This document shows positions 11,416 to 41,181 of a stretch of 64,000 nt of DNA, one piece after another. The notes beneath the pieces are model-generated. The model searched no databases. It was given only the letters and a program-made list of their open reading frames with translations, and had not been told where the DNA came from. Each line of letters starts with the position of its first letter. The stretch's first letter is position 1. The DNA is from Blastocatellia bacterium (GTDB taxonomy: Bacteria > Acidobacteriota > Blastocatellia > UBA7656): positions 67,770 to 131,769 of the forward strand of contig JBKHYJ010000042.1 of the NCBI GenBank assembly GCA_046565505.1. The letters run 5' to 3'. The translations under genes and the position numbers were made by a program.

Positions 11416-11560
11416 TATATTTTACCGTAGGCGTCGCCGTCGGATCGAACGCATGCGCCGAGTGGGTGTCGGTCCCATGAAATAACGTCGCGCGGTGGGC
11501 CGGCGGCGTGCGAGATTTTATTGTTCGCCCGGGCGGCGCCCCGCCGGAGGTATATCAAAC

Positions 11561-24081: not shown

Positions 24082-24900
24082 CTAGGGCTTTTCGCCGCAT
24101 GCCATAAGCAGCAGCCTGATGACAAACCTGTCCTCGGAGGCGAGGAGTTTGTCGGAGGCCGCGCGGAGGGTTTCGTACTCTTCTTCTGTTATTACGCCCG
24201 CATCAACGAGGGGCAACGCGCGTTGGGGGTTGATCTGCGGGTAAAACCCTTCGATGCCTTTGTCGCCGCTGTGCGTCGCCACGATTTCGAGGTCTATGTT
24301 TTTAAACCCGGCTTTGCTCAGTATCCGCCAGAGCTCGCGGCCTATCATCGTATTCCCGCCGAGCGAGGTCTGGTACTGCCTGAGCTTCTCGCGGACGGGC
24401 TGGATCTCGGGGAAATAAGGGTCGGTCATGAGGTTGAAGGCGAAGTCGCCTTCGGTCAGCACAAGCCTGCCGCCCGGCTTGAGCAGGCGTTTGATCTCAT
24501 TTAACGCCTCGACGCGGTCGGGTATGTGCTCGAAGACGAGCCGGCCGAAAGCGAAATCGAAGCTCTCGTCCGGGAGGTCCGTCTTATTTATTGACGCTTC
24601 GACGAAGCGGTACTTGCACTGCGCCGCCCGCTCTAAATGCTGCTCGGCGTATTTAATCATGACCGGGTCAAGCTCGACGCAGGTGATCGAGCCGTTCGGG
24701 ATCAGCTTGGAAACCCATTCCGTGACGAATCCCGGCCCGCTCCCCACCTCCAGGACGGACATGCCATCCCGCAGGCCGAACGCCAACAGGTTGCGCCCTT
24801 CTTTCTCCACGTTCAGGTTAGCCTGGTAGTAAAGGCGCTCGATCTCCGCGTCCAGGCTGACATTCGCCGTGCTAACGTCGTACACTTTCGGTTGAGCCAT
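24082..24900 (-). CDS. class I SAM-dependent methyltransferase (paralogue 2)
   Basis: LEVGSGPGFVTEWV motif I. Roughly 55-60% identical across its length to the 13958-14806 product. Confidence 0.85.
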   Translation of the reverse strand: MAQPKVYDVSTANVSLDAEIERLYYQANLNVEKEGRNLLAFGLRDGMSVLEVGSGPGFVTEWVSKLIPNGSITCVELDPVMIKYAEQHLERAAQCKYRFVEASINKTDLPDESFDFAFGRLVFEHIPDRVEALNEIKRLLKPGGRLVLTEGDFAFNLMTDPYFPEIQPVREKLRQYQTSLGGNTMIGRELWRILSKAGFKNIDLEIVATHSGDKGIEGFYPQINPQRALPLVDAGVITEEEYETLRAASDKLLASEDRFVIRLLLMACGEKP

Positions 24901-24994: not shown

Positions 24995-26308
24995 CTAAAG
25001 AGCCTCGGACTCGGACTCGGCCGCCGCCGGCCCGCTTGTGAATGGCTCATCAGGCTTGCGGACGTTCGCCGAGGTGAATAGCCCCGCCGTGGCGAGCAGA
25101 ATGCACATCAGGCCCGTGGCGACCAGCACCGCCGACGCGCCGGCCCGCTCGGCGACCATAGAGGCGGCCGCCGTGCCGAGCGGGCCTATCACCGTGAGTA
25201 TCATCCAGAAGGCGGAAGTTACGCGCCCGAGCAGGCGGTCCGGCGTGACCTGCTGGCGCAAAGACATAGAGCTGACGTTCCTCACAGTGATGCCGAAGCT
25301 GTAGCACGCAGAGAGCGCCGCCAGGGCCGCCACGTTAGGCGCGAGGCCGATTGCGGCGATGGCCGCGCCCATCAAAATATTGCTGCCCAGAAAAGACCAG
25401 CCGAACCCTTTCCTGCGGCGCAGCGCCGGCGCGAGTACGCCCGCCAGTATCGCACCTACGCTGGCGATGCCGAAGATGATCCCGACCGTGTCGTCGTTTC
25501 GGCCCATGTCATGCTTCAGGCGGAATATGACCAGATTCATCGTCGCGCCTGAGATGAAAGAAAAGATGGCGAGCAGCACCGTGACCGACCTCAGCACGCG
25601 GTGGGTGAACACGAAGCGGACCCCTGCGAGGATGTTATCTATCTTCGAGCGGCCCGAATCGGTGGATTGCTCCGCGGGCTCGGGGTCGGCCTTGCGCAGC
25701 CTGACCATCAGCATAAAAATCGCGGAGGCCCCATACGACAGTGCGACCGTTATGACCGCATTGGTGGCGCTGAAGTGTCTGGAGGCAAGGCCGGCCAGCA
25801 TGGGGCCCGCCACGTAGGCGACGGCGACCGTGGCCTGCAACCGGCCATTGGCCTCGGTTATCTGTTCTTTATTGACCACGCCGGGTATTACCGACGTGTA
25901 CGCGATGAAGAAAAATGTCGTCAGGTAAGCGGTTATGGTCGCGACGACGTAAATGGCCATCAGGCTCGGGCCGAGCAGCCACCAGATGAGCGGTATGGCG
26001 AGGTAAAATAACATCCTGCCCAGGTCCGAGAGAATCATTACCTTTCGCCGATCCACCCTGTCTACCACGACCCCGCTTACCATGCTCGAAATCAGGTTGC
26101 CCGCGCCGATGGCCGCCGTGACCAGCCCCATCTGCGCAACCGACCCCGTCGCCTCAAGCACCAGCAACGGGATCACGATCAGGGCGGCCGAATCGCCGAG
26201 GGCGTCAAAGGTCTGCCCCACCCAGAAGGTGTTGAAATTACGGTCGCGCCACAGCCCGCGGCCGGGCGAAGCAGCGGCCGCCACGCCGAGCGGTGTTGTA
26301 TTACTCAT
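24995..26308 (-). CDS. MFS transporter (EntS-like / DHA-type exporter)
   Basis: 12 predicted TM helices, MFS motif region G..VDR.DRRKVM. Start overlaps the upstream carrier-protein gene by 8 nt. Confidence 0.85.
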   Translation of the reverse strand: MSNTTPLGVAAAASPGRGLWRDRNFNTFWVGQTFDALGDSAALIVIPLLVLEATGSVAQMGLVTAAIGAGNLISSMVSGVVVDRVDRRKVMILSDLGRMLFYLAIPLIWWLLGPSLMAIYVVATITAYLTTFFFIAYTSVIPGVVNKEQITEANGRLQATVAVAYVAGPMLAGLASRHFSATNAVITVALSYGASAIFMLMVRLRKADPEPAEQSTDSGRSKIDNILAGVRFVFTHRVLRSVTVLLAIFSFISGATMNLVIFRLKHDMGRNDDTVGIIFGIASVGAILAGVLAPALRRRKGFGWSFLGSNILMGAAIAAIGLAPNVAALAALSACYSFGITVRNVSSMSLRQQVTPDRLLGRVTSAFWMILTVIGPLGTAAASMVAERAGASAVLVATGLMCILLATAGLFTSANVRKPDEPFTSGPAAAESESEAL

Positions 26309-26558
26309 GCCGGGTCCGGTTTAATATATTGTCTCGGACGAGTCGAGGCGTGCGGAACGAGTTGACGGACTGCGCATTCAGATTGATCGCATGACCGCTG
26401 ACCCTTTCCAGAAGGTGGATGAACTCGATAAAGCCTAACGAGTCGATTACCCTTCCTTCTATGAGGTCAGTGTCGGGGCCGATTTCTTTCAGCTCGCGCT
26501 TTCTAGCCATGAGCCACCGCTTAACCGTCAGGATCGGGGCTGACTTGGTTGCGCTCAT
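26301..26558 (-). CDS. stand-alone peptidyl/acyl carrier protein
   Basis: 85 aa. Phosphopantetheine attachment motif GRVIDSLGFIEFI. AAGGAGG RBS 8 nt upstream of ATG. Confidence 0.75.
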   Translation of the reverse strand: MSATKSAPILTVKRWLMARKRELKEIGPDTDLIEGRVIDSLGFIEFIHLLERVSGHAINLNAQSVNSFRTPRLVRDNILNRTRHE

Positions 26559-26739: not shown

Positions 26740-29700
26740 CTAGTCCGCCCCGAGTTTCTCGCCCGGAGATTCCTCCGCGAACGCCTCCACGTCGTCACCT
26801 GTAAGCTCTTGCATCTCCGACAGCACCTCTGCCATCAGGTTCATTTCCGCCTCATCCAGGTTTTGCTGGCCTTGTTCGATTGCGGCGGCGAGCCGGGCGA
26901 CGGTGGGCGACTCAAAGATAGTTCGCAAAGGAAGCTCTATGGGCAGGGCCTGTTGAATCTTCGATATGAGCTGAGTCGCCAGTATGGATTGGCCGCCCAT
27001 CTCGAAGAAGTCGTCATGTACACCCACGCGCTCGACGCCGAGCACGTCGGCCCACACGCCCGCCAGAAGCTCCTCAAGCGGGGAGCGCGGCGAGGCGAAA
27101 GGCGTTTGCGACCGCAGTTGCGATTGGTCGGGCGCGGGCAGCGCCTTACGATCAATCTTGCCGTTGGGGGTCAGCGGCATCTGCTCCAGAGCCACGAACG
27201 CCGAAGGGATCATGAAATCCGGCAGCCTCTCTTTCAAGGAGCCGCGTAGCTGGTCTGCCGAAAGAGTCTCCCCGGCCTCCGCGACGACGTATGCCACCAG
27301 ACGCTTGTCGCCCGGCCTATCTTCTCTGTCCACGACCACGGCTTCCCTGACGGAGGCGTTCCGCCTTATCGCCTCCTCGATCTCGCCAAGCTCTATGCGG
27401 AACCCGCGTATCTTGACCTGATGATCTATGCGCCCGAGGAACTCGATATTGCCATCGGGCAGGTAGCGCGCGAGGTCCCCCGTGTCGTAGAGTCGCGCCC
27501 CGGGCTCTTCGGAAAATGGGTTGGGGATGAACTTCTCTGCCGTCAGGTCCGGCCGCTTCAGGTAGCCGCGCGCTAGGCCCTCGCCGCCTATGTGTAACAC
27601 GCCAGGTATCCCGACCGGGGCCGGGCCGAGGTAGCCGTCCAGTATATAAATGTTTGTGTTCGCGACCGGCCGGCCGATAGGCACCAGCCCCGCCTCGCTA
27701 CGCCCGCCGCATTCCCAGTAAGTCACGTCCACGGAGGCTTCAGTCGGGCCATACAGGTTGTGCAATTCCGCGCTCATCAGATCGAAGAATCTCTGCTGTA
27801 GCTCGTAGGGCAACGCCTCCCCGCTGCATACGACTCGCTTCAGCCTGTAGCAAGCTTCCAGCCCATCACCCGCGAGGAAAAGCTGTAGCATCGAGGGCAC
27901 AAAATGAATCGTGGTTATCTTCTGCCTTGCTATCTCCTCGATCAGGTATTGCCTGTCTTGATGCCCCTCGGGCAGGGCCATTACCACGCACGCCCCGGTA
28001 ATCAGCGGCCAGAAGAACTCCCAGACGGACACGTCGAAGCTGAAAGGCGTCTTCTGCAATACCCTGTCGTCGCCCGTCATCTGATACGCCTCCTGCATCC
28101 ACAGCAGCCGATTACAGATTCCTCGATGAGGGATCATCACGCCTTTGGGCTTGCCCGTAGACCCGGAGGTGTAGATCACGTACGCCAGGCTCTCGCCCGA
28201 AGCCTCGTTGACAAGGTTTGCCTCGGACTCCCGCGATATGACATCCCAATCAGAATCAAGGCGGACGGTCTTCCCCATGTGCTCCGGCAACCGTCCCGCC
28301 AATCCGCCCTGAGTGAGCAGCACGGGCGGGCGGGCGTCGTCGAGCATGAACGTTAAGCGTTCTTTCGGGTAGGCCGGGTCTAAAGGCACATAAGCCCCGC
28401 CCGCCTTGAGAATGCCGAGCAGACCTACCACCATTTCCAACGACCGCTCGGCGCATACGCCCACGGGCACGTCCGGGCCGACCCCCCGCCGCCGCAGGAA
28501 ATGGGCCATTTGATTCGCCCGCCGGTTCAGCTCCGCATAACTGAGCCGCCGGTCGTCAAAGATGACCGCGTCGGCGAGCGGCGTGCGCTCGGCCTGCGCC
28601 TCGACCATCTCATGCAGGCACACGCCGCGCGGGTAGTCTCTCTTCGTTTGATTGAATTCGACAAGGACCTGGTGCTGTTCCTCCTCCGACAGCATGCGCA
28701 GGCCGCGCACGGGTCGGCTCCAGTCTTCTGTCGCGGAATCGAGTATCGCCAGAAAATGCCTCGCGGCATCCGCGCTCTGCCCTTCGCCGAACGCGCCGCA
28801 GTTGAAGTCAAAATCTAATACGAAATCTCCGCTCCCCTTGAAGTCGCTGACCTGTAGGGTCAAAGTGTCGTTGGAATGCCCCGAATGGACCAGGTCGAAT
28901 TCTACATGCAGCCCGCACAATTCCGTGAGCGACGCGCTTTGATAATTGAAGTAGACGTTGTAGACCCTGTTGTCGCGGGAGTTGCGGACAGGGTACATCT
29001 GGTTTCTCGACGATTCGAGCATCTCGACCTGCACGCGCCTGGCGAGCGAGTCGAAGTTGTCTCCCCCCGAGACGGAGACTTCGAGCGGGCAAACGTTTAT
29101 GAACAGCCCGGGCGTCTGCCTGAAAGCGTCCGGCCGGTTGGCGAACGGCGAGCCTATCCTCAGCCGCCGCTCCCCGGAGACGCGGTGCTGGTAGGCGAAT
29201 AACGTCGCGGCGAATACGACGGCCGGCGAGAATAACCCTTCGCGGCCCGCGACCTGCTTGACCCTCCGGCTGCGCTCCGCCCCGAGGTTGATTGATACCC
29301 TGCGGGTGCGGGTGGTCTTCGCGGAGGAATCTCTCTTATAAAACTGAAACAGATTGGGCGCCGTGGCGAGCTTCTTCCTCCAATAGAGTTCGGCCTGGCC
29401 GTATTGGGGCGAACGGCGGAATTCCCTCTCGTATTCTATGTAGGCCGCGTATGGGGGGAGCGGACGCGCCTCACCGATTCTGCCTTCGAGCGAGAGATGG
29501 TAATACTCGGACACCGACCGTAAGATCACGGCCACCGACCACAGGTCCGCTATCATGTGACTCAGGCTCAAGAACCACACGAACCGATCTTGCGAGAGCT
29601 TGAAGAGGGCCGAGTCGAACAGCCTCTCCCCCAGATCGAGCGGCTCGGCGCACAGCCGCCTGAGCGCCTCCCCGCATTCGGCGCGCGGGTCTTCGCCCCC

Positions 29701-32700
29701 GGAGAGGTCAACGTAGTCGATCTCGAAGTGGATATTCTGGTGCTCTATCCGCCGCGGCGCGCCGTTCGACTCGACGACGGTGCTGCGCAGCACGTCACTG
29801 TTATCTATGACCTTCTGGAACGCCGCGCGGAAATGCGCAACGTCGATCGCGCCTTCGATGGCGAACGTCCCTAGAACGTTGTCGAAGTACAGCTGTACGT
29901 CAGGCTGTAGCTTTTTGCTGAACCAGAACAACAACTGGTTCTGTGCCATGTTCGATTGTTCGTAGATGGCGTCAGTCGCGTCGGCTATGACGCCCTGGCC
30001 GTCCTTTTCCGCCTGCGGGAGTGCAGGCCCCGTCTGCCCCGGCCGTCGTTCGACCAGCGGCGGCAGCGTGAGGATGCGTCGCTCGGGATGGTGGGCGACA
30101 TCCTCCAACACCGCCTCGAAGAATTCCAGGAACCGCCGGGCCGTCGAAGCCTCAAACAGGTCGGAGTTGTATTCGAGCGCCCCCCTTAGTTTCCCCTGCT
30201 CTTCGCGGACGAAAACGGTCAGGTCGAGCCTGGACGTGTGGTCCTCGAACGGGATGCGGCTGACGGTGACGCCGGGCAGGTCAAGGAGCTGGGGTGAAGA
30301 ATTCTCGAAGGCGAACGCGACCTGGCGCAGAGGCGGGCGGCTAAGGTCTCTCTTCTGCTGGAACGCCTCCACCATCTTCTCGAATGGCATGTCCTGGTGG
30401 TCGAAGGCGTCGAGCGTCGCCTCGCGCACGCGATTTATCAGCTCCTTATAAGTCGGGTCGCCCGACAGGTCTATCGGCGGGACCAGTATGTTAGTGAAGA
30501 AGCCGATCAGCCCCTCCGTCTCCATGTGATTCCGGTTGGCGACGGGCAGCCCGACGATTATCTTCTCCTGGCCGGAACACCTGTGCAGCACGGCGGCGTA
30601 AGCCGCCAGCAGCGTCATGAATAGTGTGCTCCCTTGCTGTAGGCTCAGCTCCCTGACGGCCCTCGACAGCGAATCGGGAAACTCAAATGTCAGGGTCGCG
30701 CCGCGGAATGCCTGGACGGCGGGCCGCGGCCTGTCGGTCGGCAGGTCCAGCGTGGGAATGTCATCGCCCAGGCGGCGCTTCCAATGCTCAAGCTCCGCCC
30801 CTAACACGGGGCCGTCGAGCCACCGGCGCTGCCAGACGGCGAAGTCCGCGTACTGGATGGGCAGCGCGGGCAGGGGCGAGGCCAGCCCCTCCGAGAAAGC
30901 CCTGTAGAGCGCGGAAATCTCCCCGTTGAAAATCCCGACCGACCAGTCGTCAGACACTATGTGGTGAATGGCGAGAATCAGCACGTGTTCGTGTTCGCCG
31001 AGCCGGGCAAGGGCGGTCCTCAGCAAAGGCCCTCGGGTCAGGTCGAACGGACGGCGCGCCTCTTCGGCGGCCATTCGCAGGACGGCTTCTTCCCGCGCAG
31101 GCTCATCCAGGTGCGACAGATCGACGACCGGAAAATCCACTTCAAGGCTCGGCGCGACGACCTGCACGGGCTGGCCCTTGTCAGCGCTGAAAGTCGTGCG
31201 CAGTATGTCGTGGCGGCGCACGACTTCGTTGATGCTGCGCCCGAAGGCCCTCACGTCCAGCGGTCCGCTCAGGCGCAAGGCGACGGAGACGTTATAAACC
31301 GGGTTGTTCGGCACGAGCCGGTCGAGGAACCACAGCCGCCACTGCGAGTAAGATAAAGGGATCGCCGCGCGACTCCGCGATTTTTCAATGGGCGGGGCCT
31401 GAAGTCCCGTCCCATTCGCCCGCTCGCTCTTGATGAACTCGGCCAGGGCCGACACGGTCGGCGACTCGAACAGCTTGCGCAAAGGCAACTCCATTTGAAA
31501 GGCGGCGCGGAGGCGCGAGACGGCCTGTGTCGCGAGCAGCGAGTTGCCCCCTGCCTCGAAGAAATTCTCATGCACGCCTACCCGCTCAAGGCCCAGCACC
31601 TTCGCCCACACGTTAGCCACGATCTCTTCCACGGGGTTCGTGATGCCGGGACTCACGGCCTCGGATGCGGCTTCGTGTTGATCGGGCGCGGGAAGCGAGC
31701 GGCGGTCCACCTTGCCGTTCGGCGTCAGCGGGATGGCGTCCAAAAACAGGAACCGCGACGGAACCATGTACTCAGGGAGCCGCGCTTTCAGGAAAGCGCG
31801 CAGGTCGTCCGCACTGACATCTCTGCCCTGCTCCGCTACGACATAAGCCACCAGCCGCCTGTCGCTCGCCTCATCTTGCGCGGCCAATACCACGGCGTTG
31901 CGCAAGGCGTCGTGGCCTCGCAACACCGATTCGATTTCGCTCGGCTCTATCCGAAAACCCCTGACCTTCACTTGATCGTCTACACGGCCGAGGAACTCGA
32001 TGGCCCCATCGGGCAAGTGACGAGCCAGGTCGCCCGTTTTGTAAAGGCGCTCGCCCGGCGGGCCGCCGAACGGGTTCGGTATGAACTTTTCGGCGGTCAA
32101 GTTCGGGCGTTTGAAGTAACCGCGTGCCAGCCCCGCCCCTCCGATATGGATTTCGGCCGGGACTCCCGCGGGTACGGGCTGGGCGTCGCCGTCGAGCAAA
32201 TAGACCTGCGCGTTCGGGAGCGGATAGCCTAATGGGACGGTCGCGAGGTGATCGGCCATGCGCCGCGGGTCAGCATGATAGGTCAGCACGCCCACGGTGG
32301 TCTCCGTCGGGCCGTAGTGATTGATAACCGTCAGGCCGGGGTTGAGGCCCCGGAGCTGCTCGACCCAATTCCTCTGCGACGCCTCGCCGCCCAGCACGAG
32401 CATCTTGCGCGGTAAGACCTGCTCGCCATTAGAGAACGACCGCAAGCTCGCGAGGTGGCTCGGCACTACCTTGAGGCAGTCGATTGAGTTCTCGCGGAAG
32501 TAGCTGCTCATCGCGTCGGCGTCGGAGGCACGGTCCTCTGATATTACATGGAGGCAGCCGCCATTGCAGAGCGAAGGAAAGATGACCGTGTTTCCGAGGT
32601 CGGCCGCCGGCGTGGATACCAGCGCGAAGCTGCTCATGGCGGCCAGTCCTAACCTTTCGGCCGCGCCAATCATGTAATTGACCAGTTGCCTGTGCTCGAT

Positions 32701-35700
32701 GGCGACGCCCTTTGGCCGCCCGGTCGAACCTGATGTATAGAGCACGTAAGCGAGATTGTCGCCTGCTACATTAGAGGCCGGGTTCCCGTCGCTTTCCCGA
32801 CTTATCAGGTCCCAGTCCGAATCCACGCACACCGCCGCGTCCCCGTGTTCGGGCAAGGCATGAATCAACCGCTCCTGAGTCAACAGCGTCGCGGCCCCAA
32901 CGTCTTCGAGCATGAAAGCCACACGGTCCTTCGGGTATGACGGATCGATGGGCACGTAGGCCCCGCCGGACTTTAGTATTCCGAGCAGCCCGACGAACAT
33001 CTCCGGCGACCGCTCCATACACATGCCTACGGGCGTCTCGGGGCCGACGCCCAGCTTGCGCAGGTAATGCGCCAGCCGGTTCGCCCTCGCGTTCAAGTCC
33101 CGGAAGGTGAGCCGTTGCCCCTCGAACATTATCGCGATGTTGTCGGGCGTTCGCTCGACCTGCTCTTCAAAGAATTGATGCACGCACAGGTCTTCGCGGA
33201 AATCCCTCCGGGTGTCGTTGTACGCCACGAGCAAATGATGCAGCTCGGCCTCGGAGAGCATGGGCAGCGCCGAAATGGGCGTTGCGGGGGCCGACGCGGC
33301 TGCCTCCAGCAGCCGCTGGAAGTGGCCGGCCATCCTCCCTATCGTGGGCGCGTCGAATAGCTCTGTCTTGTACTCTATCCAGCCGCTTATCACGTCGGGC
33401 TGCTCTTCCGACAGCGCCATCGTCAGGTCAAATTTCGTCGCCTTTCTTTCGACTTCCACGAAGCTCGTTTTCAGTCCCGCCAAACTCGGCTCGGGCGTCG
33501 GCTCCATTTGCATCTCGAACATGGCTTGAAAGATCGGGTTACGGCTCAACTGCCTTTCGGGTTGTAGCTCATCGACCAACATTTCAAAAGGCAGGTCCTG
33601 GTGGGCGTAAGCGTCAAGACACACGCCTCGCTCGCGGGCTAACGTCTGCGTAAAGCTCGGCCTCCCGGAGAGGTCCGTGCGCAGGACCAGTGTATTTACG
33701 AAGAAACCGATCAACCCTTCCAACTCCGCGCGGTTGCGGCCCGCTATGGGCGTGCCGACGATTATGTCTTCCTGGCGGGTATACCTGTGGAGCAATACCT
33801 TGAATGCGCACAGCAGGGTCATGAACATGGTGACGCCCTCCTGCCTGCTGAGCGCCTTGAGCGACCGCGTCAAATCCTCCGACAGAGCGAACGACTGCCT
33901 GGAGCCTTGGAAGTCCGAGGCCTGCGCGTGCGGCCGGTCCGTCGGCAGCTCCAGCACCGGGAGGTCGCCCGAGAGCTTCTGTCTCCAGTACGACAACTGC
34001 GATTCCAACAACTCACCTTGTAACCACCCCCGCTGCCATACGGCGAAATCAGCGTACTGGATCGGCAACCCGGGAAGCGGCGAAGGTCTGCCGGCGGAAA
34101 AGGCGTCATAGAGTACGCCCATCTCGCGCGCGAACACGCCCAGAGACCACCCATCCGAAACAATGTGGTGCAAGCACAGAATCAGCAGGTGGTCATCTTC
34201 GCCCACGCGCAGGAGCTTCGCACGAAGCAACGGCCCCGCGGCGAGGTCAAAAACATGCGCGGCCTCTTCTTCGGCTAACTTTAGCGCGCCGGCCTCGCGT
34301 GAGCCGGCCGGCAGGTCAGTAAGGCTTATCACGGGGAGAGGCAGCTTAAGCTCCGGCGAGATGACTTGCCGGGGCCGCCCCTCCGCGGAGATGAATGTGG
34401 TTCTGAGGGATTCGTGACGCCACACTAGCTCATTCAAGCTCTGCTCTAAGGCCGAAATGTCGAGCCGGCCCTTGATGCGTATGGCCCCCGGCATGTTGTC
34501 TGCGCGGCGGCCGGGCTCTAACTGGCTGAGGAACCACAGGCGCTGTTGGGCGAAGGAAAGCGGCAGTTGCCCGTCGCGGGAGGCGGGCGATAGCTGCGGC
34601 GCCGCAGGCGCGGCCGCCGACCGGAGCGCCCTCTCTACGACCTGCGCCAGCCCGGCCACTGTCGGCGATTCAAACAGCGCGCGGACAGACAACTCTACGC
34701 CGAACGCATTATGCACGCGAGACAAAAGCTGCATGGCTAGCAGCGAGTGTCCGCCCATCTCGGAAAAGTCGTCATAAATACTTACGCGGTCGAGCCCGAG
34801 CACCTCCATCCAGATTTCCGCAAGGGCCTCCTCGACCGGCGTGCGCGGGGCGGCAAAGATACCCGCCGAGGCGGGCTTAGTCCAGTCTGGCGCGTGAAGC
34901 GCGCGGCGGTCCACCTTGCCATTCGGCGAGAGCGGCAGCGCGTCGAGAAGCACGAGCGAGGAAGGCACCATGTATTCGGGAAGCTTCTCCTCCAAGTAGC
35001 TGCGCAGAATCGGGACCAGTTTTTCGATGTGGACCCCCTGAAGCGGCGCGGTCGCGTACTTGCCCCACGGCCTGGGGCTTATAGTCTCTTTGACGAGAGG
35101 GGCGGCCGCCCTGATCGCGGCTTCTCCCTGCCCGGCGGCGCGGCGCTGGAAGACGATCTCGTATCGGCCATCCGCCCTCGATTCCGACCAGCCTATGCTG
35201 ACGGAGTACGGCTCTTCGTCGCCTATCGCCCAGATGTCCTCGGGGTCTATTCCCTCTTCGCCCGCCCCGGCGTATTCTGCCATCAACTCCGCCGCGGTCG
35301 CCGGGCCGTTGGCCTGTTTCAGCATTTGCACCAGTTTCACATCCGCCATGACCCTGGCGTTGGGCACTCCCTTTATGGCTAGCAGGTCAGGCCGGCTCTC
35401 TCGCAGCAGTCGCCGCACGCCGGCCGCCGTCAGGCCTTCAGTTTCCCAGTCGAGCCAATCGACATGCCGGGCGGCGCGCCTCTCGCCCCCGACATGCAGA
35501 ATCACGTCGTAGCGGAATTTGCTTAGCTCGTTCCGATTGCGCCCCCGCATCAGCAGTATTTCCACATGGCTTATCTGCGGCAGGTGGCGCTTCAGCGCGA
35601 TAAAGAACTCGGGGTCGATCACCAGTTGTTTTTCTTTTAGCAACTGTGTTTGTACCTGCTGCAATAACTCCGCCTTAGACAGCCCGGGCGGCGACTTGTG

Positions 35701-38700
35701 CAGTTGGACGGAGGTGTGGAAGGCTTCGAGCAGCGACAAGTTCCTAACGTCGCCCAGGAAAATATGCCCGCCTTTCGCGACCGCCCTCACGGCCTGTTCG
35801 AGTACGCGCATGAGGTAATCGACGCTCGGGAAGTACTGCGCAACCGAAACGATCAGCACCGCGTCGAACTCGCCCTCCTCCACGCCCTGGAAATTATCCC
35901 CGCCCCTGAGCTTGAAGCTCACCTGCGGCAGGTCGACGCCCATGATCTTTAACTGCTCCTGAATCAGTTCGAGCGAGCGCACCGCCTGATCCGTCGCGTA
36001 ATACTTCTCGCAAGAGGGCGCGACGCGCAGCAGCATAAGCCCGCTGCCCCCCGAGCCGATCTCATACACGCGCGAAGGGCGCAGCGACAGGATTCGCTCG
36101 ACCGTCTGGTCCATCCACTCGCGCACCTCTTCGCCGGGGATGGGCGCATCGGAGTAGCTGCTGGTCCAGCCCTTGATGTAGAACCCGAGTTCTTCGCCCG
36201 GGTCCATGTCCCTGTAGAGGTCGTTGAAAATCTCGCGCCAGTCGGCGGCCTGCCTGCTTTGCAGGTCATCGCCCGCCGCGCGCTCGTCGAATTCCACGTG
36301 CTCCCTGTCCGGGACCACGAACCCGACGAGCCGCTTATTGCCCGCGCCATATTCCTGCGCGAGGATCACGGCGTCCCGCACGGCGCGGTGCTGCCTCAGC
36401 ACAGTTTCGATCTCCTCAAGCTCGACGCGGAACCCGCGTATTTTCACCTGCTGATCGACCCGGCCGAGGAATTCAAGGTTGGCGTCCGGGAGGTAGCGGG
36501 CGAGGTCGCCGGTTCGGTACATCCTTTCGCCGGGCTTGAGCGCGAAGGGGTTAGGTAAGAACCTGTCGGCGGTCGTGTCGGGCCGCCCGTGATAGCCTCG
36601 GGCCAGGAGGGCGCCGCCCAGGTAGACCTCGCCCTGCACGCCGACCGGGGCGGGCTGTAGGTTCGTATCCAGTATATAAATCTTGGCGTCGGGTATGGCG
36701 GACCCTATCGGTAGCTCGCGCGTCACGCCCTCCCTCACGGGGAACTCCGATATGTCGCACATAGAGACGGAGATCGTCGCTTCGGTCGGGCCATAAGTGT
36801 GCATGAGCCGGGTCCGGCCTGCCGCATGCTTCTGCCAGGCGGCGAGCCTCTCCGGGAACGCCCTTTCCCCCGCTATGACGACCATCCTCAGCGAGGGCGG
36901 CAGCGACAGATTCTCTTCTTCCAGCGTGGCCGTGATTTGATGCCAGTATGCGGTCGGCAGGCTCATCACGGATATCCCCCACTCCCTGCACCTCTCCAGG
37001 AAGACGGTTACGGAGTCGAGCATAGAATCGGTCCGCAGCACGAGCGCCGCCCCGCGGGTGAGACACGGGTATATCTCTTCCCCGCTTATGTCGAAACTGA
37101 TCGAGCAGAATTGAAGCGCGCGGTCACCGGGCTTCACCCCGTAGTTGACCGCGCAAGTTTCCGCGTAGCTCACAAGCGAGCGGTGCTGGACCATCACGCC
37201 TTTCGGGGACCCCGTGGAGCCCGACGTGTAAATGACGTAGACGAGATTTTCTCCCGCGACGGTGTTGACAGGGTTCTCTTCGCTCTCGCCCGCGACCGCT
37301 TCCCATCCGGAATCCAAACAGATCACGCGCACGTCCCCGGCCGGAATGGTCTTGAGCAATCGCCGTTGCGTCAGCAGCACGGGCACGCGGGCGTCGTCCA
37401 ACATCAGTGCGAGGCGCTCCGGCGGGTAGTCTTTGTCTAACGGCACGTAGGCGCCCCCGGCTTTGATGATCCCGAGCATACCCACCATCATTTCCAGAGA
37501 GCGTTCCATGCACAGGCCGACAAGAACGTCTGGCCCCACCCCCATAGACCGTAAGCGATGAGCCACCTGATTGGCGCGGCTGTTCAACTGACGGTAAGTG
37601 AGTTCTTCTTTCTCGAAGGCCAGGGCGATGGCTTCGGGCGACCGCTCGACCTGCCGCTCGAATAGCAGGTGTATGCAAGGAGATTGAATATACTGCCGGT
37701 CGGTATCGTTCCAGGCGAAGAGGATCTGTTGGCGTTCAGACCTCGACAGGAGGTCTAAATCCGAGATGCGCGCGGCGGGGTCGGCCACTATACTCTCCAG
37801 GAGTCTTTGGAAATGGCCCACCATCCTGCCGACCGTGCCGGATTCAAACAGGTCCGTGTTGTACTCGAAGGAGGCGGCCAGCCCCTCGTCCACCTCGGCT
37901 ATGCTCAGGGACAAATCGAACTGAGCTATCTGCTGGTGCAGGCCCGTAGATTCCAGTAGCAAATCTCCCAGCCGCATCTGCACCCCGGCCTCCCCCAGCG
38001 CGAACGTAGCCAGCCTTTGCACGTCCGGCAGGGGCGACTTTTGCCATACGAACATCACCTGAAAAATAGGCGAGCGGCTGAGGTCGCGCACGGGTTGCAG
38101 TCGCTCGACAAGTAGCTGGAACTGGAAATCCTGGTGCTCGAAGGCTTCCAGTGCGGTCCGGCGCACCTGGTCCAGAAACTCGTCGAATCTAACGGAGGCC
38201 GACGCCTGCGCCCGCATCACGACGGGGTTGACGAAATAGCCTACGACCCCGCGCAAGTCGGCCCTGCCGCGGCCGGCCGTCGGCGAGCCCACGAGGATGT
38301 CCTCCTGAGCGGTGTAGCGGTAAAGCAGCGCCTGGAACGTCGCCAGCAACGTCATGTAGGGCGTCGCTGAGCGCGCGGCGGCGAGGGACTTCAGGCCCCG
38401 GGTGAGGTCGCGTTCCAGCTTGAAGAATATCGACGCACCGTTGTAAGTCTGGACGGGCGGCCTGACTTTATCCGTGGGGAGATTCATCACGGGGAGGTCG
38501 CCGGCAAGCTTTTCCTGCCAGTACTGCCACAGCCGGTCGCCGGCGGGACCGGACAGCATCTCTATTTGCTGCCTGACGTACTCCACATACTCTAATTCGA
38601 TGGGCGGGAGCGCCGCCTCCTCGCCGGCCGTCTTAGCCTGGTACAGTATCCCTAGCTCACGCATCATCACGGCCAGGGACCAGAGGTCGGCTATGATGTG

Positions 38701-41181
38701 GTGCATGGTCATTAGCAGAACGTGATCCTGCGCCGACCGCGTGAAAAGGGTGACGCGCAGCAGCGCGCCCCGTTCGAGGTTGAACGGGCGCTGAGCGTCC
38801 TCGATCACCCGCCTGTTCAGAAATTCGTCGTCCCACCGCGAAGCGTCCTCTAACTGGAAACACACCTCTGCGCGATCATGAATCAATTGTATGGGACTAC
38901 CCCCGGGGGCGGTGAAATTCGTGCGCAAGGAGGGGTGACGGTCGATGAGCGATTGAAATGCCCGGCGCAACGCGTCCGAATCTACGCGCGACCTGATGCG
39001 GACGGCGCCCATAATATTGTAGGCCGCGCTGTGCGGGGCCAGTTTATGCAGGAACCAGAGAGCGCGCTGTCCGTGGGAGAGAGGGTGTTCAGATTCGGCG
39101 TCACGTTCGGGGGCGGCGAGAGCCGGCGAGGGTCCGGGCGCGGCCGCCAAGCGGGAAAAAACCTGCGCGGCGATTTGAGCGACGGACAAGTTTTCGAGGA
39201 AATTCGCCATCGGGAGGTTCACGCCCAGACTGGTCTCTATGCCGTACGCTAGCTCGACTGCCACGAGGGAATCTAAACAGAATTGGGCTATGGGCCGGCT
39301 CGGGTCTATGCCGGAGGGCTCTACTCCCAGCATCATCGCCAGTCGCGATATAAGACCGGATTCGATCTCTTCGGTAGTTTGCGGAGGTGAGGCGAGCGCC
39401 TGCGGCTCGCTTCGAGGTATCAGGTTTAAATTGGACTGCGCGACCGCTTCGAGGCTCCCGGCCATATACCTTGCGCGGCAGGCTTGGCGTTGAATCTTGC
39501 CGCTGGAAGTCTTCGGTATGCTTCCCGGCTCAAGCAGGACGACCGCGTACGTTTGGATTTCATGTTCTTCCGCCACGGCCCTGCGGACGGCCTCTATAAC
39601 CGCGTCTGCGTCGAGGGGCGGCCGATTACTTACTTCCTGAGCCAGCACGAGGCGCTCTTCGCCGCCCACTTCGACTGAGAACGCGGCGCCGCAGCCGGGC
39701 CTCAGGGCCGGGTGACTCCTCTCGGCCGTCAACTCGATGTCCTGTGGGTAATGGTTACGCCCCCTTATGATAATCAGGTCTTTGAGTCTGCCGGTGACGA
39801 ACAACTCTCCGCCCTGTAGGAAGCCGAGGTCGCCTGTACGCATGTAAGGGCCATCGCCCGTGTCGGAGACGTACGCTTCAAACGTGTCCCGCGTCTCATC
39901 CGGGCGGCCCCAGTAGCCGCGGGCCATACTCGGCCCCCTCAGCCATATCTCCCCTATCTGATCTGTCGCACACTGAGTCAGAGATTCAGTGTTTACGATC
40001 ACCGCGTCGAGACCAATCGCGAGCCTGCCGCAGCCGGTCAGACTGCGCGAATCCAGCCCGCGCGCGGTGGCTTCGACCAGCCGGTTTTCTTTAAGGGCGG
40101 ATTCGTCAAAGGCGCTGATGACTGGGGGCGATTGTTTCGGCCCGCCCGCCACGAATAAAGTGGCCTCGGCCAAGCCGTAGCAGGGGCAGAAAGCCTCTCT
40201 GCGAAAGCCGCATGGCTCGAATGCGGCCGAGAACCGCTCTATCGTTTCAGGGCGGACTGGCTCCGAGCCATTGAAAGCCACCGTCCAACTGGAGAGGTCA
40301 AGGTCGGCTCGCTGTTCGTCACTGATCTTGCGAACACAGAGGTCGTAGGCGAAGTTCGGCCCCCCGCTCGTCGCGGCTTTATAACGCGACACGGCCTGTA
40401 GCCAGCGCAGGGGCTTTTGTAAGAACGCTTCCGGCGATAAGAGGATCGACCTTGAGCCTATGTACAATGGCTGGAGCACGTTGCCTATCAGCCCCATGTC
40501 GTGGAAGAGCGGCAGCCACCCGACGAAGGTCGATTCTTCGGTGTGGTCGAACGAGGCCCGGATCATACGTTCGTTATGTAACACGTTGCCATGAGTGACC
40601 ATCACGCCCTTCGGGGCGGCTGTCGAGCCGGACGTATACTGAAGGAAGGCTAACGTTTCAGAATCAACTTCAGGCTCGTGCCATTCGTCAGCAAGGCCGC
40701 GGGCCATTGCGTCCGTGGCAACCCTTCGCACGGACCGGATGTCCTGATCCAGGCCCGGCAGGCTCTCGATCATAGAAAGGATGGGAGATACGGTCAGGAC
40801 GACGAAAGGTCCCGCGTCATTTACGATGGCTCTGAATCTGGGCAGGCTCCGGCTCAGGCGGGCGGGGTCGGGTGAGTATGTAGGCACGGCAGTAACACCC
40901 GCGTACAGGCAGCCGAAAAAGGCGGCTATGAAATCTAACCCCGAGGGGTAAAGTAGCAGGGCGCGTTCCCCAGTCGCGTTCAAGGACTGGAGGTATGCGC
41001 CTATGGCTCGCGCCCGCCGGTCTAATTCTTCGTAGGTGAGGCTGGCCTCCTTGGTTTCCCCATCCGAAAGGAAGCTGTAGGCTAGTCGATCAGGCTGGTT
41101 CAGTGCCCTCCATCTCAGAAGCTCGATCAGGGAGGAGAATCCCGCATGGCTGCTAGAACCAGCTACTCTCTTGCTTTTCAT
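26740..41181 (-). CDS. non-ribosomal peptide synthetase, 4813 aa: FAAL-ACP-C-A(N-MT)-T-C-A-T-C-C*-A-T plus C-terminal docking region
   Basis: All core motifs read from the translation. FAAL (YTSGSTAAPKGVMVTHGN, extended insertion) with fused ACP (FCLDSLV). C1 MHHIIADLWS. A1 (SGSTGSPKG ... GRVDQQVKIRGFRVE) carrying an inserted SAM-MT domain (VYEIGSGGSG) before NGKVDRRAL. T1 GGHSL. C2 LHHIVSDGWS. A2. T2 GGNSL. C3 IHHIVSDDWS. C* with SHMIADLWS. A3. T3 GGQSIL. ATG with GGGGGA RBS. Confidence 0.97.
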   Translation of the reverse strand: MKSKRVAGSSSHAGFSSLIELLRWRALNQPDRLAYSFLSDGETKEASLTYEELDRRARAIGAYLQSLNATGERALLLYPSGLDFIAAFFGCLYAGVTAVPTYSPDPARLSRSLPRFRAIVNDAGPFVVLTVSPILSMIESLPGLDQDIRSVRRVATDAMARGLADEWHEPEVDSETLAFLQYTSGSTAAPKGVMVTHGNVLHNERMIRASFDHTEESTFVGWLPLFHDMGLIGNVLQPLYIGSRSILLSPEAFLQKPLRWLQAVSRYKAATSGGPNFAYDLCVRKISDEQRADLDLSSWTVAFNGSEPVRPETIERFSAAFEPCGFRREAFCPCYGLAEATLFVAGGPKQSPPVISAFDESALKENRLVEATARGLDSRSLTGCGRLAIGLDAVIVNTESLTQCATDQIGEIWLRGPSMARGYWGRPDETRDTFEAYVSDTGDGPYMRTGDLGFLQGGELFVTGRLKDLIIIRGRNHYPQDIELTAERSHPALRPGCGAAFSVEVGGEERLVLAQEVSNRPPLDADAVIEAVRRAVAEEHEIQTYAVVLLEPGSIPKTSSGKIQRQACRARYMAGSLEAVAQSNLNLIPRSEPQALASPPQTTEEIESGLISRLAMMLGVEPSGIDPSRPIAQFCLDSLVAVELAYGIETSLGVNLPMANFLENLSVAQIAAQVFSRLAAAPGPSPALAAPERDAESEHPLSHGQRALWFLHKLAPHSAAYNIMGAVRIRSRVDSDALRRAFQSLIDRHPSLRTNFTAPGGSPIQLIHDRAEVCFQLEDASRWDDEFLNRRVIEDAQRPFNLERGALLRVTLFTRSAQDHVLLMTMHHIIADLWSLAVMMRELGILYQAKTAGEEAALPPIELEYVEYVRQQIEMLSGPAGDRLWQYWQEKLAGDLPVMNLPTDKVRPPVQTYNGASIFFKLERDLTRGLKSLAAARSATPYMTLLATFQALLYRYTAQEDILVGSPTAGRGRADLRGVVGYFVNPVVMRAQASASVRFDEFLDQVRRTALEAFEHQDFQFQLLVERLQPVRDLSRSPIFQVMFVWQKSPLPDVQRLATFALGEAGVQMRLGDLLLESTGLHQQIAQFDLSLSIAEVDEGLAASFEYNTDLFESGTVGRMVGHFQRLLESIVADPAARISDLDLLSRSERQQILFAWNDTDRQYIQSPCIHLLFERQVERSPEAIALAFEKEELTYRQLNSRANQVAHRLRSMGVGPDVLVGLCMERSLEMMVGMLGIIKAGGAYVPLDKDYPPERLALMLDDARVPVLLTQRRLLKTIPAGDVRVICLDSGWEAVAGESEENPVNTVAGENLVYVIYTSGSTGSPKGVMVQHRSLVSYAETCAVNYGVKPGDRALQFCSISFDISGEEIYPCLTRGAALVLRTDSMLDSVTVFLERCREWGISVMSLPTAYWHQITATLEEENLSLPPSLRMVVIAGERAFPERLAAWQKHAAGRTRLMHTYGPTEATISVSMCDISEFPVREGVTRELPIGSAIPDAKIYILDTNLQPAPVGVQGEVYLGGALLARGYHGRPDTTADRFLPNPFALKPGERMYRTGDLARYLPDANLEFLGRVDQQVKIRGFRVELEEIETVLRQHRAVRDAVILAQEYGAGNKRLVGFVVPDREHVEFDERAAGDDLQSRQAADWREIFNDLYRDMDPGEELGFYIKGWTSSYSDAPIPGEEVREWMDQTVERILSLRPSRVYEIGSGGSGLMLLRVAPSCEKYYATDQAVRSLELIQEQLKIMGVDLPQVSFKLRGGDNFQGVEEGEFDAVLIVSVAQYFPSVDYLMRVLEQAVRAVAKGGHIFLGDVRNLSLLEAFHTSVQLHKSPPGLSKAELLQQVQTQLLKEKQLVIDPEFFIALKRHLPQISHVEILLMRGRNRNELSKFRYDVILHVGGERRAARHVDWLDWETEGLTAAGVRRLLRESRPDLLAIKGVPNARVMADVKLVQMLKQANGPATAAELMAEYAGAGEEGIDPEDIWAIGDEEPYSVSIGWSESRADGRYEIVFQRRAAGQGEAAIRAAAPLVKETISPRPWGKYATAPLQGVHIEKLVPILRSYLEEKLPEYMVPSSLVLLDALPLSPNGKVDRRALHAPDWTKPASAGIFAAPRTPVEEALAEIWMEVLGLDRVSIYDDFSEMGGHSLLAMQLLSRVHNAFGVELSVRALFESPTVAGLAQVVERALRSAAAPAAPQLSPASRDGQLPLSFAQQRLWFLSQLEPGRRADNMPGAIRIKGRLDISALEQSLNELVWRHESLRTTFISAEGRPRQVISPELKLPLPVISLTDLPAGSREAGALKLAEEEAAHVFDLAAGPLLRAKLLRVGEDDHLLILCLHHIVSDGWSLGVFAREMGVLYDAFSAGRPSPLPGLPIQYADFAVWQRGWLQGELLESQLSYWRQKLSGDLPVLELPTDRPHAQASDFQGSRQSFALSEDLTRSLKALSRQEGVTMFMTLLCAFKVLLHRYTRQEDIIVGTPIAGRNRAELEGLIGFFVNTLVLRTDLSGRPSFTQTLARERGVCLDAYAHQDLPFEMLVDELQPERQLSRNPIFQAMFEMQMEPTPEPSLAGLKTSFVEVERKATKFDLTMALSEEQPDVISGWIEYKTELFDAPTIGRMAGHFQRLLEAAASAPATPISALPMLSEAELHHLLVAYNDTRRDFREDLCVHQFFEEQVERTPDNIAIMFEGQRLTFRDLNARANRLAHYLRKLGVGPETPVGMCMERSPEMFVGLLGILKSGGAYVPIDPSYPKDRVAFMLEDVGAATLLTQERLIHALPEHGDAAVCVDSDWDLISRESDGNPASNVAGDNLAYVLYTSGSTGRPKGVAIEHRQLVNYMIGAAERLGLAAMSSFALVSTPAADLGNTVIFPSLCNGGCLHVISEDRASDADAMSSYFRENSIDCLKVVPSHLASLRSFSNGEQVLPRKMLVLGGEASQRNWVEQLRGLNPGLTVINHYGPTETTVGVLTYHADPRRMADHLATVPLGYPLPNAQVYLLDGDAQPVPAGVPAEIHIGGAGLARGYFKRPNLTAEKFIPNPFGGPPGERLYKTGDLARHLPDGAIEFLGRVDDQVKVRGFRIEPSEIESVLRGHDALRNAVVLAAQDEASDRRLVAYVVAEQGRDVSADDLRAFLKARLPEYMVPSRFLFLDAIPLTPNGKVDRRSLPAPDQHEAASEAVSPGITNPVEEIVANVWAKVLGLERVGVHENFFEAGGNSLLATQAVSRLRAAFQMELPLRKLFESPTVSALAEFIKSERANGTGLQAPPIEKSRSRAAIPLSYSQWRLWFLDRLVPNNPVYNVSVALRLSGPLDVRAFGRSINEVVRRHDILRTTFSADKGQPVQVVAPSLEVDFPVVDLSHLDEPAREEAVLRMAAEEARRPFDLTRGPLLRTALARLGEHEHVLILAIHHIVSDDWSVGIFNGEISALYRAFSEGLASPLPALPIQYADFAVWQRRWLDGPVLGAELEHWKRRLGDDIPTLDLPTDRPRPAVQAFRGATLTFEFPDSLSRAVRELSLQQGSTLFMTLLAAYAAVLHRCSGQEKIIVGLPVANRNHMETEGLIGFFTNILVPPIDLSGDPTYKELINRVREATLDAFDHQDMPFEKMVEAFQQKRDLSRPPLRQVAFAFENSSPQLLDLPGVTVSRIPFEDHTSRLDLTVFVREEQGKLRGALEYNSDLFEASTARRFLEFFEAVLEDVAHHPERRILTLPPLVERRPGQTGPALPQAEKDGQGVIADATDAIYEQSNMAQNQLLFWFSKKLQPDVQLYFDNVLGTFAIEGAIDVAHFRAAFQKVIDNSDVLRSTVVESNGAPRRIEHQNIHFEIDYVDLSGGEDPRAECGEALRRLCAEPLDLGERLFDSALFKLSQDRFVWFLSLSHMIADLWSVAVILRSVSEYYHLSLEGRIGEARPLPPYAAYIEYEREFRRSPQYGQAELYWRKKLATAPNLFQFYKRDSSAKTTRTRRVSINLGAERSRRVKQVAGREGLFSPAVVFAATLFAYQHRVSGERRLRIGSPFANRPDAFRQTPGLFINVCPLEVSVSGGDNFDSLARRVQVEMLESSRNQMYPVRNSRDNRVYNVYFNYQSASLTELCGLHVEFDLVHSGHSNDTLTLQVSDFKGSGDFVLDFDFNCGAFGEGQSADAARHFLAILDSATEDWSRPVRGLRMLSEEEQHQVLVEFNQTKRDYPRGVCLHEMVEAQAERTPLADAVIFDDRRLSYAELNRRANQMAHFLRRRGVGPDVPVGVCAERSLEMVVGLLGILKAGGAYVPLDPAYPKERLTFMLDDARPPVLLTQGGLAGRLPEHMGKTVRLDSDWDVISRESEANLVNEASGESLAYVIYTSGSTGKPKGVMIPHRGICNRLLWMQEAYQMTGDDRVLQKTPFSFDVSVWEFFWPLITGACVVMALPEGHQDRQYLIEEIARQKITTIHFVPSMLQLFLAGDGLEACYRLKRVVCSGEALPYELQQRFFDLMSAELHNLYGPTEASVDVTYWECGGRSEAGLVPIGRPVANTNIYILDGYLGPAPVGIPGVLHIGGEGLARGYLKRPDLTAEKFIPNPFSEEPGARLYDTGDLARYLPDGNIEFLGRIDHQVKIRGFRIELGEIEEAIRRNASVREAVVVDREDRPGDKRLVAYVVAEAGETLSADQLRGSLKERLPDFMIPSAFVALEQMPLTPNGKIDRKALPAPDQSQLRSQTPFASPRSPLEELLAGVWADVLGVERVGVHDDFFEMGGQSILATQLISKIQQALPIELPLRTIFESPTVARLAAAIEQGQQNLDEAEMNLMAEVLSEMQELTGDDVEAFAEESPGEKLGAD
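27112..28659 (-). other. A domain 3, hand-derived code D-V-W-H-V-S-L-V-D-K (close to Ser code DVWHLSLIDK)
   Basis: FDVSVW...TTIHFVPS...VVCSGE...NLYGPTEASVD. Manual derivation. Confidence 0.5.
28702..31368 (-). other. tandem condensation-family domains (canonical C3 followed directly by divergent C* with SHxxxD) preceding A3
   Basis: C3 has C1/C3/C5/C6/C7 motifs (LSYSQWRLWFL, HHIVSDDWS, IGFFTNILV, HQDMPFE, RDLSRPPL). The next ~425 aa form a second C-like domain (LLFWFSKKLQP, LSLSHMIADLWS) that lacks the HQD and RDxSRNPL motifs. No A or T domain lies between them. Confidence 0.75.
31687..33204 (-). other. A domain 2, hand-derived specificity code D-L-T-K-V-G-H-V-G-K (near-identical to Asp code DLTKVGHIGK)
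   Basis: Positions 235/236/239/278 from AADLGNT...CLK, 299/301 from VLGGE, 322 from NHYGPTE, 330/331 from TTVG. Manual alignment to GrsA numbering, so tentative. Confidence 0.5.
35182..36264 (-). other. N-methyltransferase domain inserted between A8 and A10 motifs of A domain 1
   Basis: VYEIGSGGSG (checked at nt 36040-36069) resembles the NRPS N-MT motif VLEIGTGSG. Flanked by GRVDQQVKIRGFRVE (A8) and NGKVDRRAL (A10). Confidence 0.8.
39142..41181 (-). other. FAAL (fatty acyl-AMP ligase) starter domain with fused ACP
   Basis: N-terminal FAAL-type adenylation region (aa 1-~585) followed by a DSL carrier motif at aa ~637. Implies N-acylation, i.e. a lipopeptide. Confidence 0.85.

Follow-up and report, generated by a model that had tools for sequence, protein, structure and literature searches.

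The closest described counterpart of the tandem condensation (C) domains considered here is module 3 of IcoA, the icosalide synthetase of Burkholderia gladioli, in which an LCL-type C domain is followed directly by a CI-type one and then by a Ser-specific adenylation (A) domain and a peptidyl carrier protein (PCP), in the order LCL-CI-A(Ser)-PCP (Jenner et al. 2019, PMC6553374; Dose et al. 2018). In vitro, its CI-A-PCP portion N-acylates the PCP-bound Ser with a 3-hydroxyacyl pantetheine thioester, an activity that is abolished by mutation of the active-site His (PMC6553374), and the task proposed for the LCL domain is to join the upstream lipodipeptide to the unit so installed (PMC6553374; summarised in PMC10510592). 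IcoA module 3 is the only characterised equivalent of this rare layout found in the literature. The system set beside it here is a nonribosomal peptide synthetase (NRPS) of an uncultured soil acidobacterium, encoded on a 64-kb stretch of Blastocatellia DNA (64,000 nucleotides in all, referred to throughout as the window), in which an ordinary C domain, C3, runs straight into a second and divergent one, C*. Tandem C-Cs modules of this type break the collinearity rule of one C domain per module, and as a result standard genome-mining tools would predict a plain four-residue lipopeptide or a 'broken' module.

The window synthetase resembles IcoA in several respects. In both, a C domain of CI type, probably so in the window, is joined straight onto an LCL domain, with no A or thiolation (T) domain between the two, and is followed by a Ser-activating A domain and its carrier; both lines comprise four modules and a terminal thioesterase (TE), both C domains keep the catalytic His, and the embedded C domain takes its donor in trans in IcoA and, to judge from context, would do so here. 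What is new relative to icosalide is the priming, the carrier and, in relatives, the associated genes. IcoA begins with a second CI domain, giving dual priming, whereas the window synthetase is primed in module 1 through FAAL-T-C1 and not through an N-terminal CI domain, as assigned by Pfam. For IcoA, which lacks a dedicated carrier, fatty-acid synthesis is the presumed source of the 3-hydroxyacyl thioesters, whereas the window encodes a dedicated, free-standing carrier protein (CP) of 85 aa. Relatives of the window locus, unlike IcoA, also have an aminoacyl-tRNA synthetase-like loader, an amino acid:[carrier protein] ligase, together with an AurF-like oxygenase, a combination suggestive of a unit derived from an amino acid. 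The active site of C*, SHxxxDL, likewise differs from that of IcoA.

The first C domains of EntF and MxcG take donors from free carrier proteins and condense them with an aminoacyl-T acceptor held in cis (Ser in EntF), which is the layout proposed here for C*; the window cluster, by contrast, is devoid of genes for aryl acid activation, and C* has an embedded and not an N-terminal position. The starter C domains RzmA Cs (PDB 7C1H/7C1K) and CDA C1 (4JN3) share the fold of C* (TM 0.81-0.83), and 11 relatives of C* within its clade occupy the starter position, but C* itself is internal, behind C3, and not at the protein N-terminus as starter C domains are, a placement for which IcoA is the documented exception. 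RzmA Cs uses acyl-CoA, whereas the clade of C* is linked with carrier-bound donors. As in trans-complemented modules such as SyrE/SyrB1, albicidin Alb04 and the stand-alone A-T proteins of ramoplanin and enduracidin (PMC8949500), the building block would be made on a separate carrier and could be tailored before incorporation; such trans-complemented lines, however, keep an in-cis T domain (often with a dead A domain) and one C domain per module, whereas the window synthetase has no in-cis T domain for the extra unit and two fused C domains.

A preliminary description of the window had placed back-to-back C domains at 28702-31368, in front of a Ser module. These coordinates proved exact (minus strand), both domains match the Pfam family Condensation (PF00668) and the A domain behind them does have a Ser code. 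The synthetase is a lipopeptide synthetase encoded in a single frame by one open reading frame (ORF), as read from the ORF list and its translation, and has the domain order FAAL-T-C1-A1(MT)-T-C2-A2(Asp)-T2-C3-C*-A3(Ser)-T3, MT being a methyltransferase, with no TE domain found by Pfam and phmmer domain parsing; Pfam recognises PP-binding in 4 stretches of it. Stachelhaus codes, anchored by hand and verified on an alignment, give Asp for A2 (DLTKVGHVGK) and Ser for A3 (DVWHVSLVDK). Residue i of the protein starts at 41181-3(i-1), such that 31368 corresponds to the first residue of C3 and 28702 to the last of C*. The features on which the argument turns are as follows, FA denoting the fatty acid.

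26740..41181, minus strand: NRPS ORF, 4813 aa, with an acidic tail of ~45 aa after T3 (ORF list, Pfam, domain parsing, A codes)
31402..31641, minus strand: T2 (aa 3181-3260), predicted to carry the upstream FA-aa1-Asp chain as donor of C3 (phmmer parsing; Pfam PP-binding)
30016..31368, minus strand: C3 (aa 3272-3722), ordinary LCL-type condensation domain (Pfam, 356 bits; Txo1/Txo2)
30940..30966, minus strand: active site of C3, HHIVSDDWS, with Asp where Gly is usual (translation)
29965..30069, minus strand: C3-C* linker, ~30 aa, in one open frame (translation)
28702..30000, minus strand: C* (aa 3728-4160), embedded, probably starter-type (putative trans-donor) condensation domain (Pfam, PDB, NCBIfam, AlphaFold2, clade)
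29536..29562, minus strand: active site of C*, SHMIADLWS, with Ser for the first His, the second His (aa 3875) and the Asp retained and the Gly gone (translation)
27112..28671, minus strand: A3, Ser-activating adenylation domain (translation, A-domain code)
26842..27081, minus strand: T3, Ser carrier and putative acceptor for C*, probably for C3 too (Pfam, domain parsing)
26301..26558, minus strand: 85-aa free-standing CP with an IDSLG motif, candidate donor carrier for C* (translation; weak PP-binding match)

We read C3-C*-A3-T3, with about even confidence, as an icosalide-type tandem-condensation module, in which the LCL domain C3 is fused ahead of an embedded starter-type domain, C*, that is the native partner of A3. 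In the proposed cycle, A3 would load Ser onto T3, and C*, through its retained catalytic His, would condense a thioester unit delivered in trans, most likely on the 85-aa CP encoded directly downstream, onto the Ser amine. C3 would then move the FA-aa1-Asp chain from T2 to the nucleophile of the newly installed unit, that is, to the alpha-amine of an amino acid or the hydroxyl of a hydroxy acid, whichever the unit is, after which the C4-A4-T4-TE module would add the final residue and release the product. Such a product would carry an extra, trans-delivered unit joined both to the FA-aa1-Asp chain and to the Ser amine. Ester formation, which the preliminary description had entertained, is possible for one of the two C domains, by analogy with icosalide.

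The two C domains differ. C3 matches PF00668 with 356 bits (E 3.6e-106; gathering score 30.6) and its best PDB sequence matches are the C domains of Txo1 and Txo2 (342-350 bits). The Gly of the HHxxxDG motif is near-universal in C domains, and the HHxxxDD form seen in C3 is also found in the upstream C domain of the related loci or proteins L004, L009, P0006, P0010, P0012-P0014, P0016, P0020, P0023 and P0026; it may be an adaptation, in C domains ahead of C*, to an unusual acceptor nucleophile. The junction between C3 and C* reads ILTLPPLVERRPGQTGPALPQAEKDGQGVIADATDAIYEQSNMAQNQ, and neither Pfam nor the translation of the junction gave a match to an A or T domain between them. At 27% identity, C3 and C* are too dissimilar for the pair to be a duplication introduced by assembly.

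C* matches PF00668 with 179.2 bits (E 1.6e-52), again far above the gathering score of 30.6. The translation agrees with the motif SHMIADLWS first read here, in which Ser takes the place of the first His; the catalytic residues are intact in both C domains. The C6 and C7 motifs, initially described as absent, are indeed not canonical, but the region is present in degenerate form, with a 10-residue deletion (SRNQMYPVRNSRDNRVYNVYFNYQ) and an Asn in place of the C6-like His, and this is normal for the clade to which C* belongs, fitting its consensus ARHQxYPVRNP..YDVYFNYQ. By sequence affinity C* is probably of the starter type. Its best PDB sequence match is the starter C domain of RzmA (99 bits, E 2e-27, residues 21-431, 23-24% identity), whereas elongation C domains in the PDB reach at most 79 bits and align only over residues ~1-340; no stand-alone epimerisation (E) domain structure is among these matches. 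In NCBIfam, C* matches the first C domains of MxcG (residues 11-313, E 5e-34) and EntF (residues 32-326, E 8e-14). The best matches in a plasmid collection, at no more than 29% identity, are sited at the extreme 5' end of their NRPS genes, and the same protein search brought up no clade member on a plasmid of a cultured organism. The AlphaFold2 model of C*, built on a 15-sequence clade alignment, is well folded (pLDDT 90.7, pTM 0.89; the first 8 residues have pLDDT <50), and its top Foldseek neighbours are C domains, with TM scores of 0.82-0.84 against Txo2, RzmA Cs, CDA C1 and the fuscachelin PCP-C didomain; the C fold is thus predicted to be intact, in a comparison that does not separate the subtypes. 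That C* takes a trans-delivered thioester donor is suggested by its context, namely the neighbouring free CP gene and the CP and loader genes found beside clade members.

A word-indexed search with C* returned only 5 proteins, all at ≤39% identity, a scan of genome contigs found one relative, L004, from a metagenome-assembled genome of the Blastocatellia and the nearest locus to the window, and a metagenome scan with a 4-sequence alignment found only L009 and L010. An exhaustive HMMER search over 1.84 billion representatives, with metagenomic NRPSs clustered at 50% identity and parsed per domain, was more productive, the survey of the clade covering the best 150 of 8474 matches at E ≤1e-30. 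Some 58 representatives score 195-499 bits against C* and ≤110 bits against C1-C4, and the best region of every other protein listed scores ≤119 bits against C*; by these scores C* forms a distinct metagenomic clade. In the resulting set of 60 domains, which includes the window, L004 and L009, 45 lie directly behind a C-type domain (linkers of 1-40 residues), 11 are N-terminal and 4 stand elsewhere. N-terminal and embedded members are intermixed in a neighbour-joining tree, indicating that the same kind of domain serves both positions. The clade includes at least 44 distinct C-C* didomains, in almost all of which the upstream C domain has HHxxxD, and 21 of the 44 start their protein (C-C*-A-T...), so that C-C* is inherited as one unit, which speaks against chance fusion of two assembly lines. 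The layout is a recurrent unit, and not a one-off of the Burkholderia icosalide system.

Within the clade, the motif Asp is present in all 60 domains and the His at the second position in 52, and C* matches 40 of the 46 clade-conserved columns. The window, L004 and L009 make up a small SHxxxDLWS subclade, L009 having HHIVCDDWS in its upstream C domain and SHMISDLWS in its C* domain. The A domain downstream of near-clade members is Ser-specific in every case and Asp-specific in none, whereas distant members precede A domains of many specificities, among them the N-terminal P0091 with the Asp-like code DSTKIGHVGK. Genomic context was viewed for 13 loci, many of them limited by contig ends. The surroundings of N-terminal clade members feature an adjoining FAAL-T protein, a nearby stand-alone CP (L001) or, again nearby, a stand-alone A domain with a CP and an acyl-CoA-dehydrogenase-like gene (L003). 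A further variant is seen in L011 (1549-8280; protein P0008), where two embedded starter-type C domains follow each other in the order C-C*-C*-A-T-TE.

The stand-alone carrier protein that the preliminary description had mentioned as a possible trans partner does exist. Its gene lies directly downstream of the NRPS gene, with the ribosome-binding site AAGGAGG 8 nt upstream of it, and the encoded CP is 42-52% identical to those of L004, L007, L008 and L012 (52% for L004), with the Asp-Ser pair invariant. In L004, the same position is occupied by an AurF-family diiron protein, a CP and a 300-aa amino acid:[carrier protein] ligase-like protein (NCBIfam PRK07080, E 1e-36; PDB 3MEY, Bll0957, E 1.5e-24). 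This trio of AurF-like protein, CP and Bll0957-like ligase adjoins the C-C* synthetase in L004, L007, L008, L012 and L017/L018, while in L016 the trio position holds an AurF gene and a small ORF that is truncated where the contig ends and in L006 a stand-alone A domain and a CP take the place of the trio. The trios, with CPs of 81-87 aa, are located as follows.

L004, 13080-15117: AurF-like protein, CP and ligase
L007, 12718-14751: AurF-like protein, CP and ligase
L008, 1-1246: AurF-like protein, CP and ligase
L012, 23576-25558: AurF-like protein, CP and ligase
L016, 14763-15847: AurF-like protein and small ORF, in which the contig ends
L017, 19866-21916: AurF-like protein, CP and ligase

L017 is a minimal cluster, with the synthetase FAAL-T-C-A-T-C-C*-A-T, the trio and a TE. 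The didomain is thus tied to a dedicated small CP in the clade of the window and, in six relatives (one of them, L016, partial), also to a ligase and an AurF-like oxygenase. With five to six related loci in which an orthologue of the window CP adjoins a C-C* synthetase, and with a probably starter-type domain whose clade also stands N-terminally beside free CP and loader genes, the suggestion that C* is a site working with the stand-alone CP in trans is the one we favour among those first put forward.

Both components of the trio other than the CP have precedents. The AurF homologue HamC oxidises carrier-tethered valine (PMC11659414), and the genes that flank the CP in the relatives recall Bll0957 ligases on the one hand and carrier-tethered N-oxygenation by AurF homologues (HamC/PvfB) on the other; the window, unlike these relatives, has neither gene. 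The biological function of the amino acid:[carrier protein] ligases, enzymes whose first description dates from 2010, was still given as unknown in a 2022 review (PMC9437257), and in the literature searched no paper links these ligases to NRPS C domains. Their position beside C-C* synthetases may be their physiological context; the trio loci provide a concrete and testable pathway for them which, if true, would be their first physiological role. Of the trio, the window has kept only the CP. More tentatively, C-C* is possibly the splice-in point for a type II branch. Ancestrally, as in the six loci, the ligase would charge the CP, an AurF/HamC-like enzyme would oxidise the tethered amino acid (for example to its N-hydroxy form) and C(HHxxxDD)-C* would insert the residue between two in-line residues of the lipopeptide, giving a backbone hydroxamate or similar metal-binding group, the window then being a derived form that keeps the CP and the didomain and in which the charging of the CP has changed. 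To engineers, C-C* would offer a natural place at which an assembly line could be fed non-canonical units in trans.

Several observations weigh against the tandem-condensation reading. C* is likened to the CI domain of IcoA by layout and published description and not by sequence, and its assignment as a starter domain comes from best-hit ranking and genomic position, with a margin of ~20 bits over elongation C domains. The subclade formed by the window, L004 and L009 belongs to the more divergent part of the clade, with 37-40 of the 46 conserved columns. An amino acid:[carrier protein] ligase, an AurF homologue and a stand-alone A domain are all missing from the 64-kb window, and a tblastn search of the NRPS-CP junction and of the entire window for AurF or ligase remnants yielded matches at chance level only (E >0.1). 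Finally, no CP, ligase or AurF gene lies within the retrieved flanks of L009 and L010, which are close relatives, or of L013 and L005, from which it follows that C-C* is not strictly dependent on a cluster-encoded CP.

The rival explanation that survives best, though we think it rather unlikely, is a split-module relay in which the CP stands in for the T domain that is lacking between C3 and C*. Here C3 would condense the chain onto aminoacyl-CP and C* would then transfer it from peptidyl-CP onto Ser-T3, so that the product would be the same as in the tandem-condensation reading, with the order of condensations reversed and the CP visiting two catalytic sites. The CP and ligase of the six related loci do amount to an A-T pair in trans, the C* clade appears from sequence context to take its donors from free carriers, and the C-C*-C*-A-T-TE arrangement of P0008 is easily read as calling for two successive trans carriers. 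Against this, L009 retains an intact C-C* didomain and yet has a gene of the major facilitator superfamily (MFS) directly after the NRPS stop, and no CP; the window is without a ligase, and either absence would stop a strict relay unless substitutes are encoded elsewhere; and in the one characterised precedent, IcoA, the LCL domain works on the in-cis PCP.

We also doubt, somewhat more strongly, that C* is vestigial, that is, that the AurF-like and ligase genes have been lost, C3 couples the chain straight to Ser-T3, C* persists as a platform for A3 and the CP is a leftover. The absence from the window of the ligase and oxygenase that its close relatives possess would fit such a history, as would the replacement of the first His by Ser and of the C6-like His by Asn and the low ranking of the window, L004 and L009 in conservation within the clade. 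However, SHxxxDLWS and a similar degree of divergence are also found in L004, which has the full trio, and both are therefore unconnected to the loss of genes. C* moreover keeps its second His and Asp and 40 of the 46 conserved columns, its conservation relative to C3 and A3 is no lower in pairs without the trio than in pairs with it, and the CP ORF is intact, with a conserved Asp-Ser and a strong ribosome-binding site.

Two further explanations are improbable. The preliminary description had raised a modifying C domain, and a modAA-like C* would act on Ser, forming dehydroalanine, a beta-lactam or something similar, and would carry out no condensation with a trans donor. C* does stand immediately ahead of a Ser module, as do all near-clade members, and its active-site motif is non-canonical. 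This suggestion nevertheless fares badly, as McyA (PDB 8JBR), the sole modAA-containing NRPS among the PDB matches of C*, scores 50.5 bits where RzmA Cs reaches 99, the more distant members of the clade stand ahead of A domains with many other specificities, including non-Ser/Thr ones, those that are the first domain of their synthetase have no upstream residue to modify, and the conserved CP would be left without a role. Equally improbable is a fusion of two lines, with C3 as the terminal releasing C domain of an FA-aa1-Asp line and C*-A3-T3 plus C4-A4-T4-TE as a CP-primed dipeptide line. The resemblance of C* to first-module C domains and a short C3-C* linker that looks like an interdomain junction are what such a fusion would leave, but in 21 of the 44 cases the protein opens with the didomain, as C-C*-A-T, which puts the boundary between proteins ahead of the upstream C domain, and C3 is a standard LCL domain with no similarity to releasing CT domains.

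Least probable of all is a non-catalytic interface domain recruiting a stand-alone TauD-type beta-hydroxylase, as for beta-hydroxy-Asp siderophores, for although the cluster has a TauD-family dioxygenase gene (11495-12595, plus strand) and A2 is Asp-specific, C* lies ahead of the Ser module while the Asp module has a single ordinary C domain, C2, near-clade members never precede an Asp A domain (one distant member, P0091, has the Asp-like code), the catalytic His and Asp are conserved, and no TauD gene was seen in the flanks of the trio-bearing relatives. Reitz and colleagues are said to have described in 2019 that an interface domain precedes the A domain for Asp (or His) whose residue a stand-alone TauD-type enzyme hydroxylates. 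Nor is there support for an E domain of the ordinary kind with a DCL domain behind it, C* following a C domain, preceding A3 through a canonical C-A linker in the translation and having no stand-alone E-domain structure among its PDB sequence matches.

The remaining parts of the assembly line and its cluster, which takes in about 10.5-41.2 kb of the window, can be described more briefly. The final module is encoded by a separate gene:

14828..18991, minus strand: final module C4-A4-T4-TE, 1387 aa, predicted to receive the chain from T3 (Pfam; 45% identical to its L004 counterpart)

This partner module starts (at 18991) 7.7 kb downstream of the NRPS gene, with six genes in between, and the order downstream of the CP, as assigned by Pfam, is MFS transporter, methyltransferase, MacB-type permease, fatty-acid-desaturase-family protein, B3/4-domain protein and C-A-T-TE module. 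The acidic tail of ~45 residues behind T3 (26740-26870, minus strand) may be a docking element. At the other end of the synthetase, A1 is interrupted by an insertion of ~400 aa (about 34860-36260, minus strand; NRPS aa ~1640-2040) that has a methyltransferase fold (Pfam Methyltransf_11/12, aa 1707-1808) and is missing from the L004 orthologue. The ~1.3 kb 5' of the NRPS start (41182-42484) contain only ORFs of <50 codons and are probably the promoter or regulatory region of the cluster.

Several of the accessory genes touch on a different aspect of the product. The stand-alone B3/4-domain protein (19091-19834, minus strand) resembles the canavanyl-tRNA deacylase CtdA (PDB 9F7E, E 6e-10), and the fatty-acid-desaturase-family protein next to it (19995-21074, minus strand) has GntB, an L-arginine gamma-hydroxylase, as its best NCBIfam match (E 3e-16). 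The 384-aa ORF at 12586-13740 (minus strand), which matches no Pfam family, seems to encode a Rossmann protein resembling glutamate or leucine dehydrogenase (GDH/LeuDH), the name being taken from the annotation of a homologue; it was considered as a loader of the CP and rejected on account of this resemblance. Together with the TauD gene, these genes look like a provision for the supply of an Arg-like non-proteinogenic residue and for protection against tRNA mischarging, and the codes of A1 (DIESVATISK) and A4 (DAKDFALDDK) may belong to such residues. A related C-C* cluster, L008, encodes a DUF6875 plus tRNA_edit (YbaK-like) protein (8791-9990) with a trans-editing deacylase fold like that of the window B3/4 protein; proteins of this fold thus recur in C-C* clusters. 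The core of the window cluster is flanked by two paralogous class I methyltransferases (13958-14806 and 24082-24900, both minus strand) that are 56% identical to each other, and L005 has this methyltransferase pair as well, in tandem, and also encodes a GDH-like protein 69% identical to the 384-aa one.

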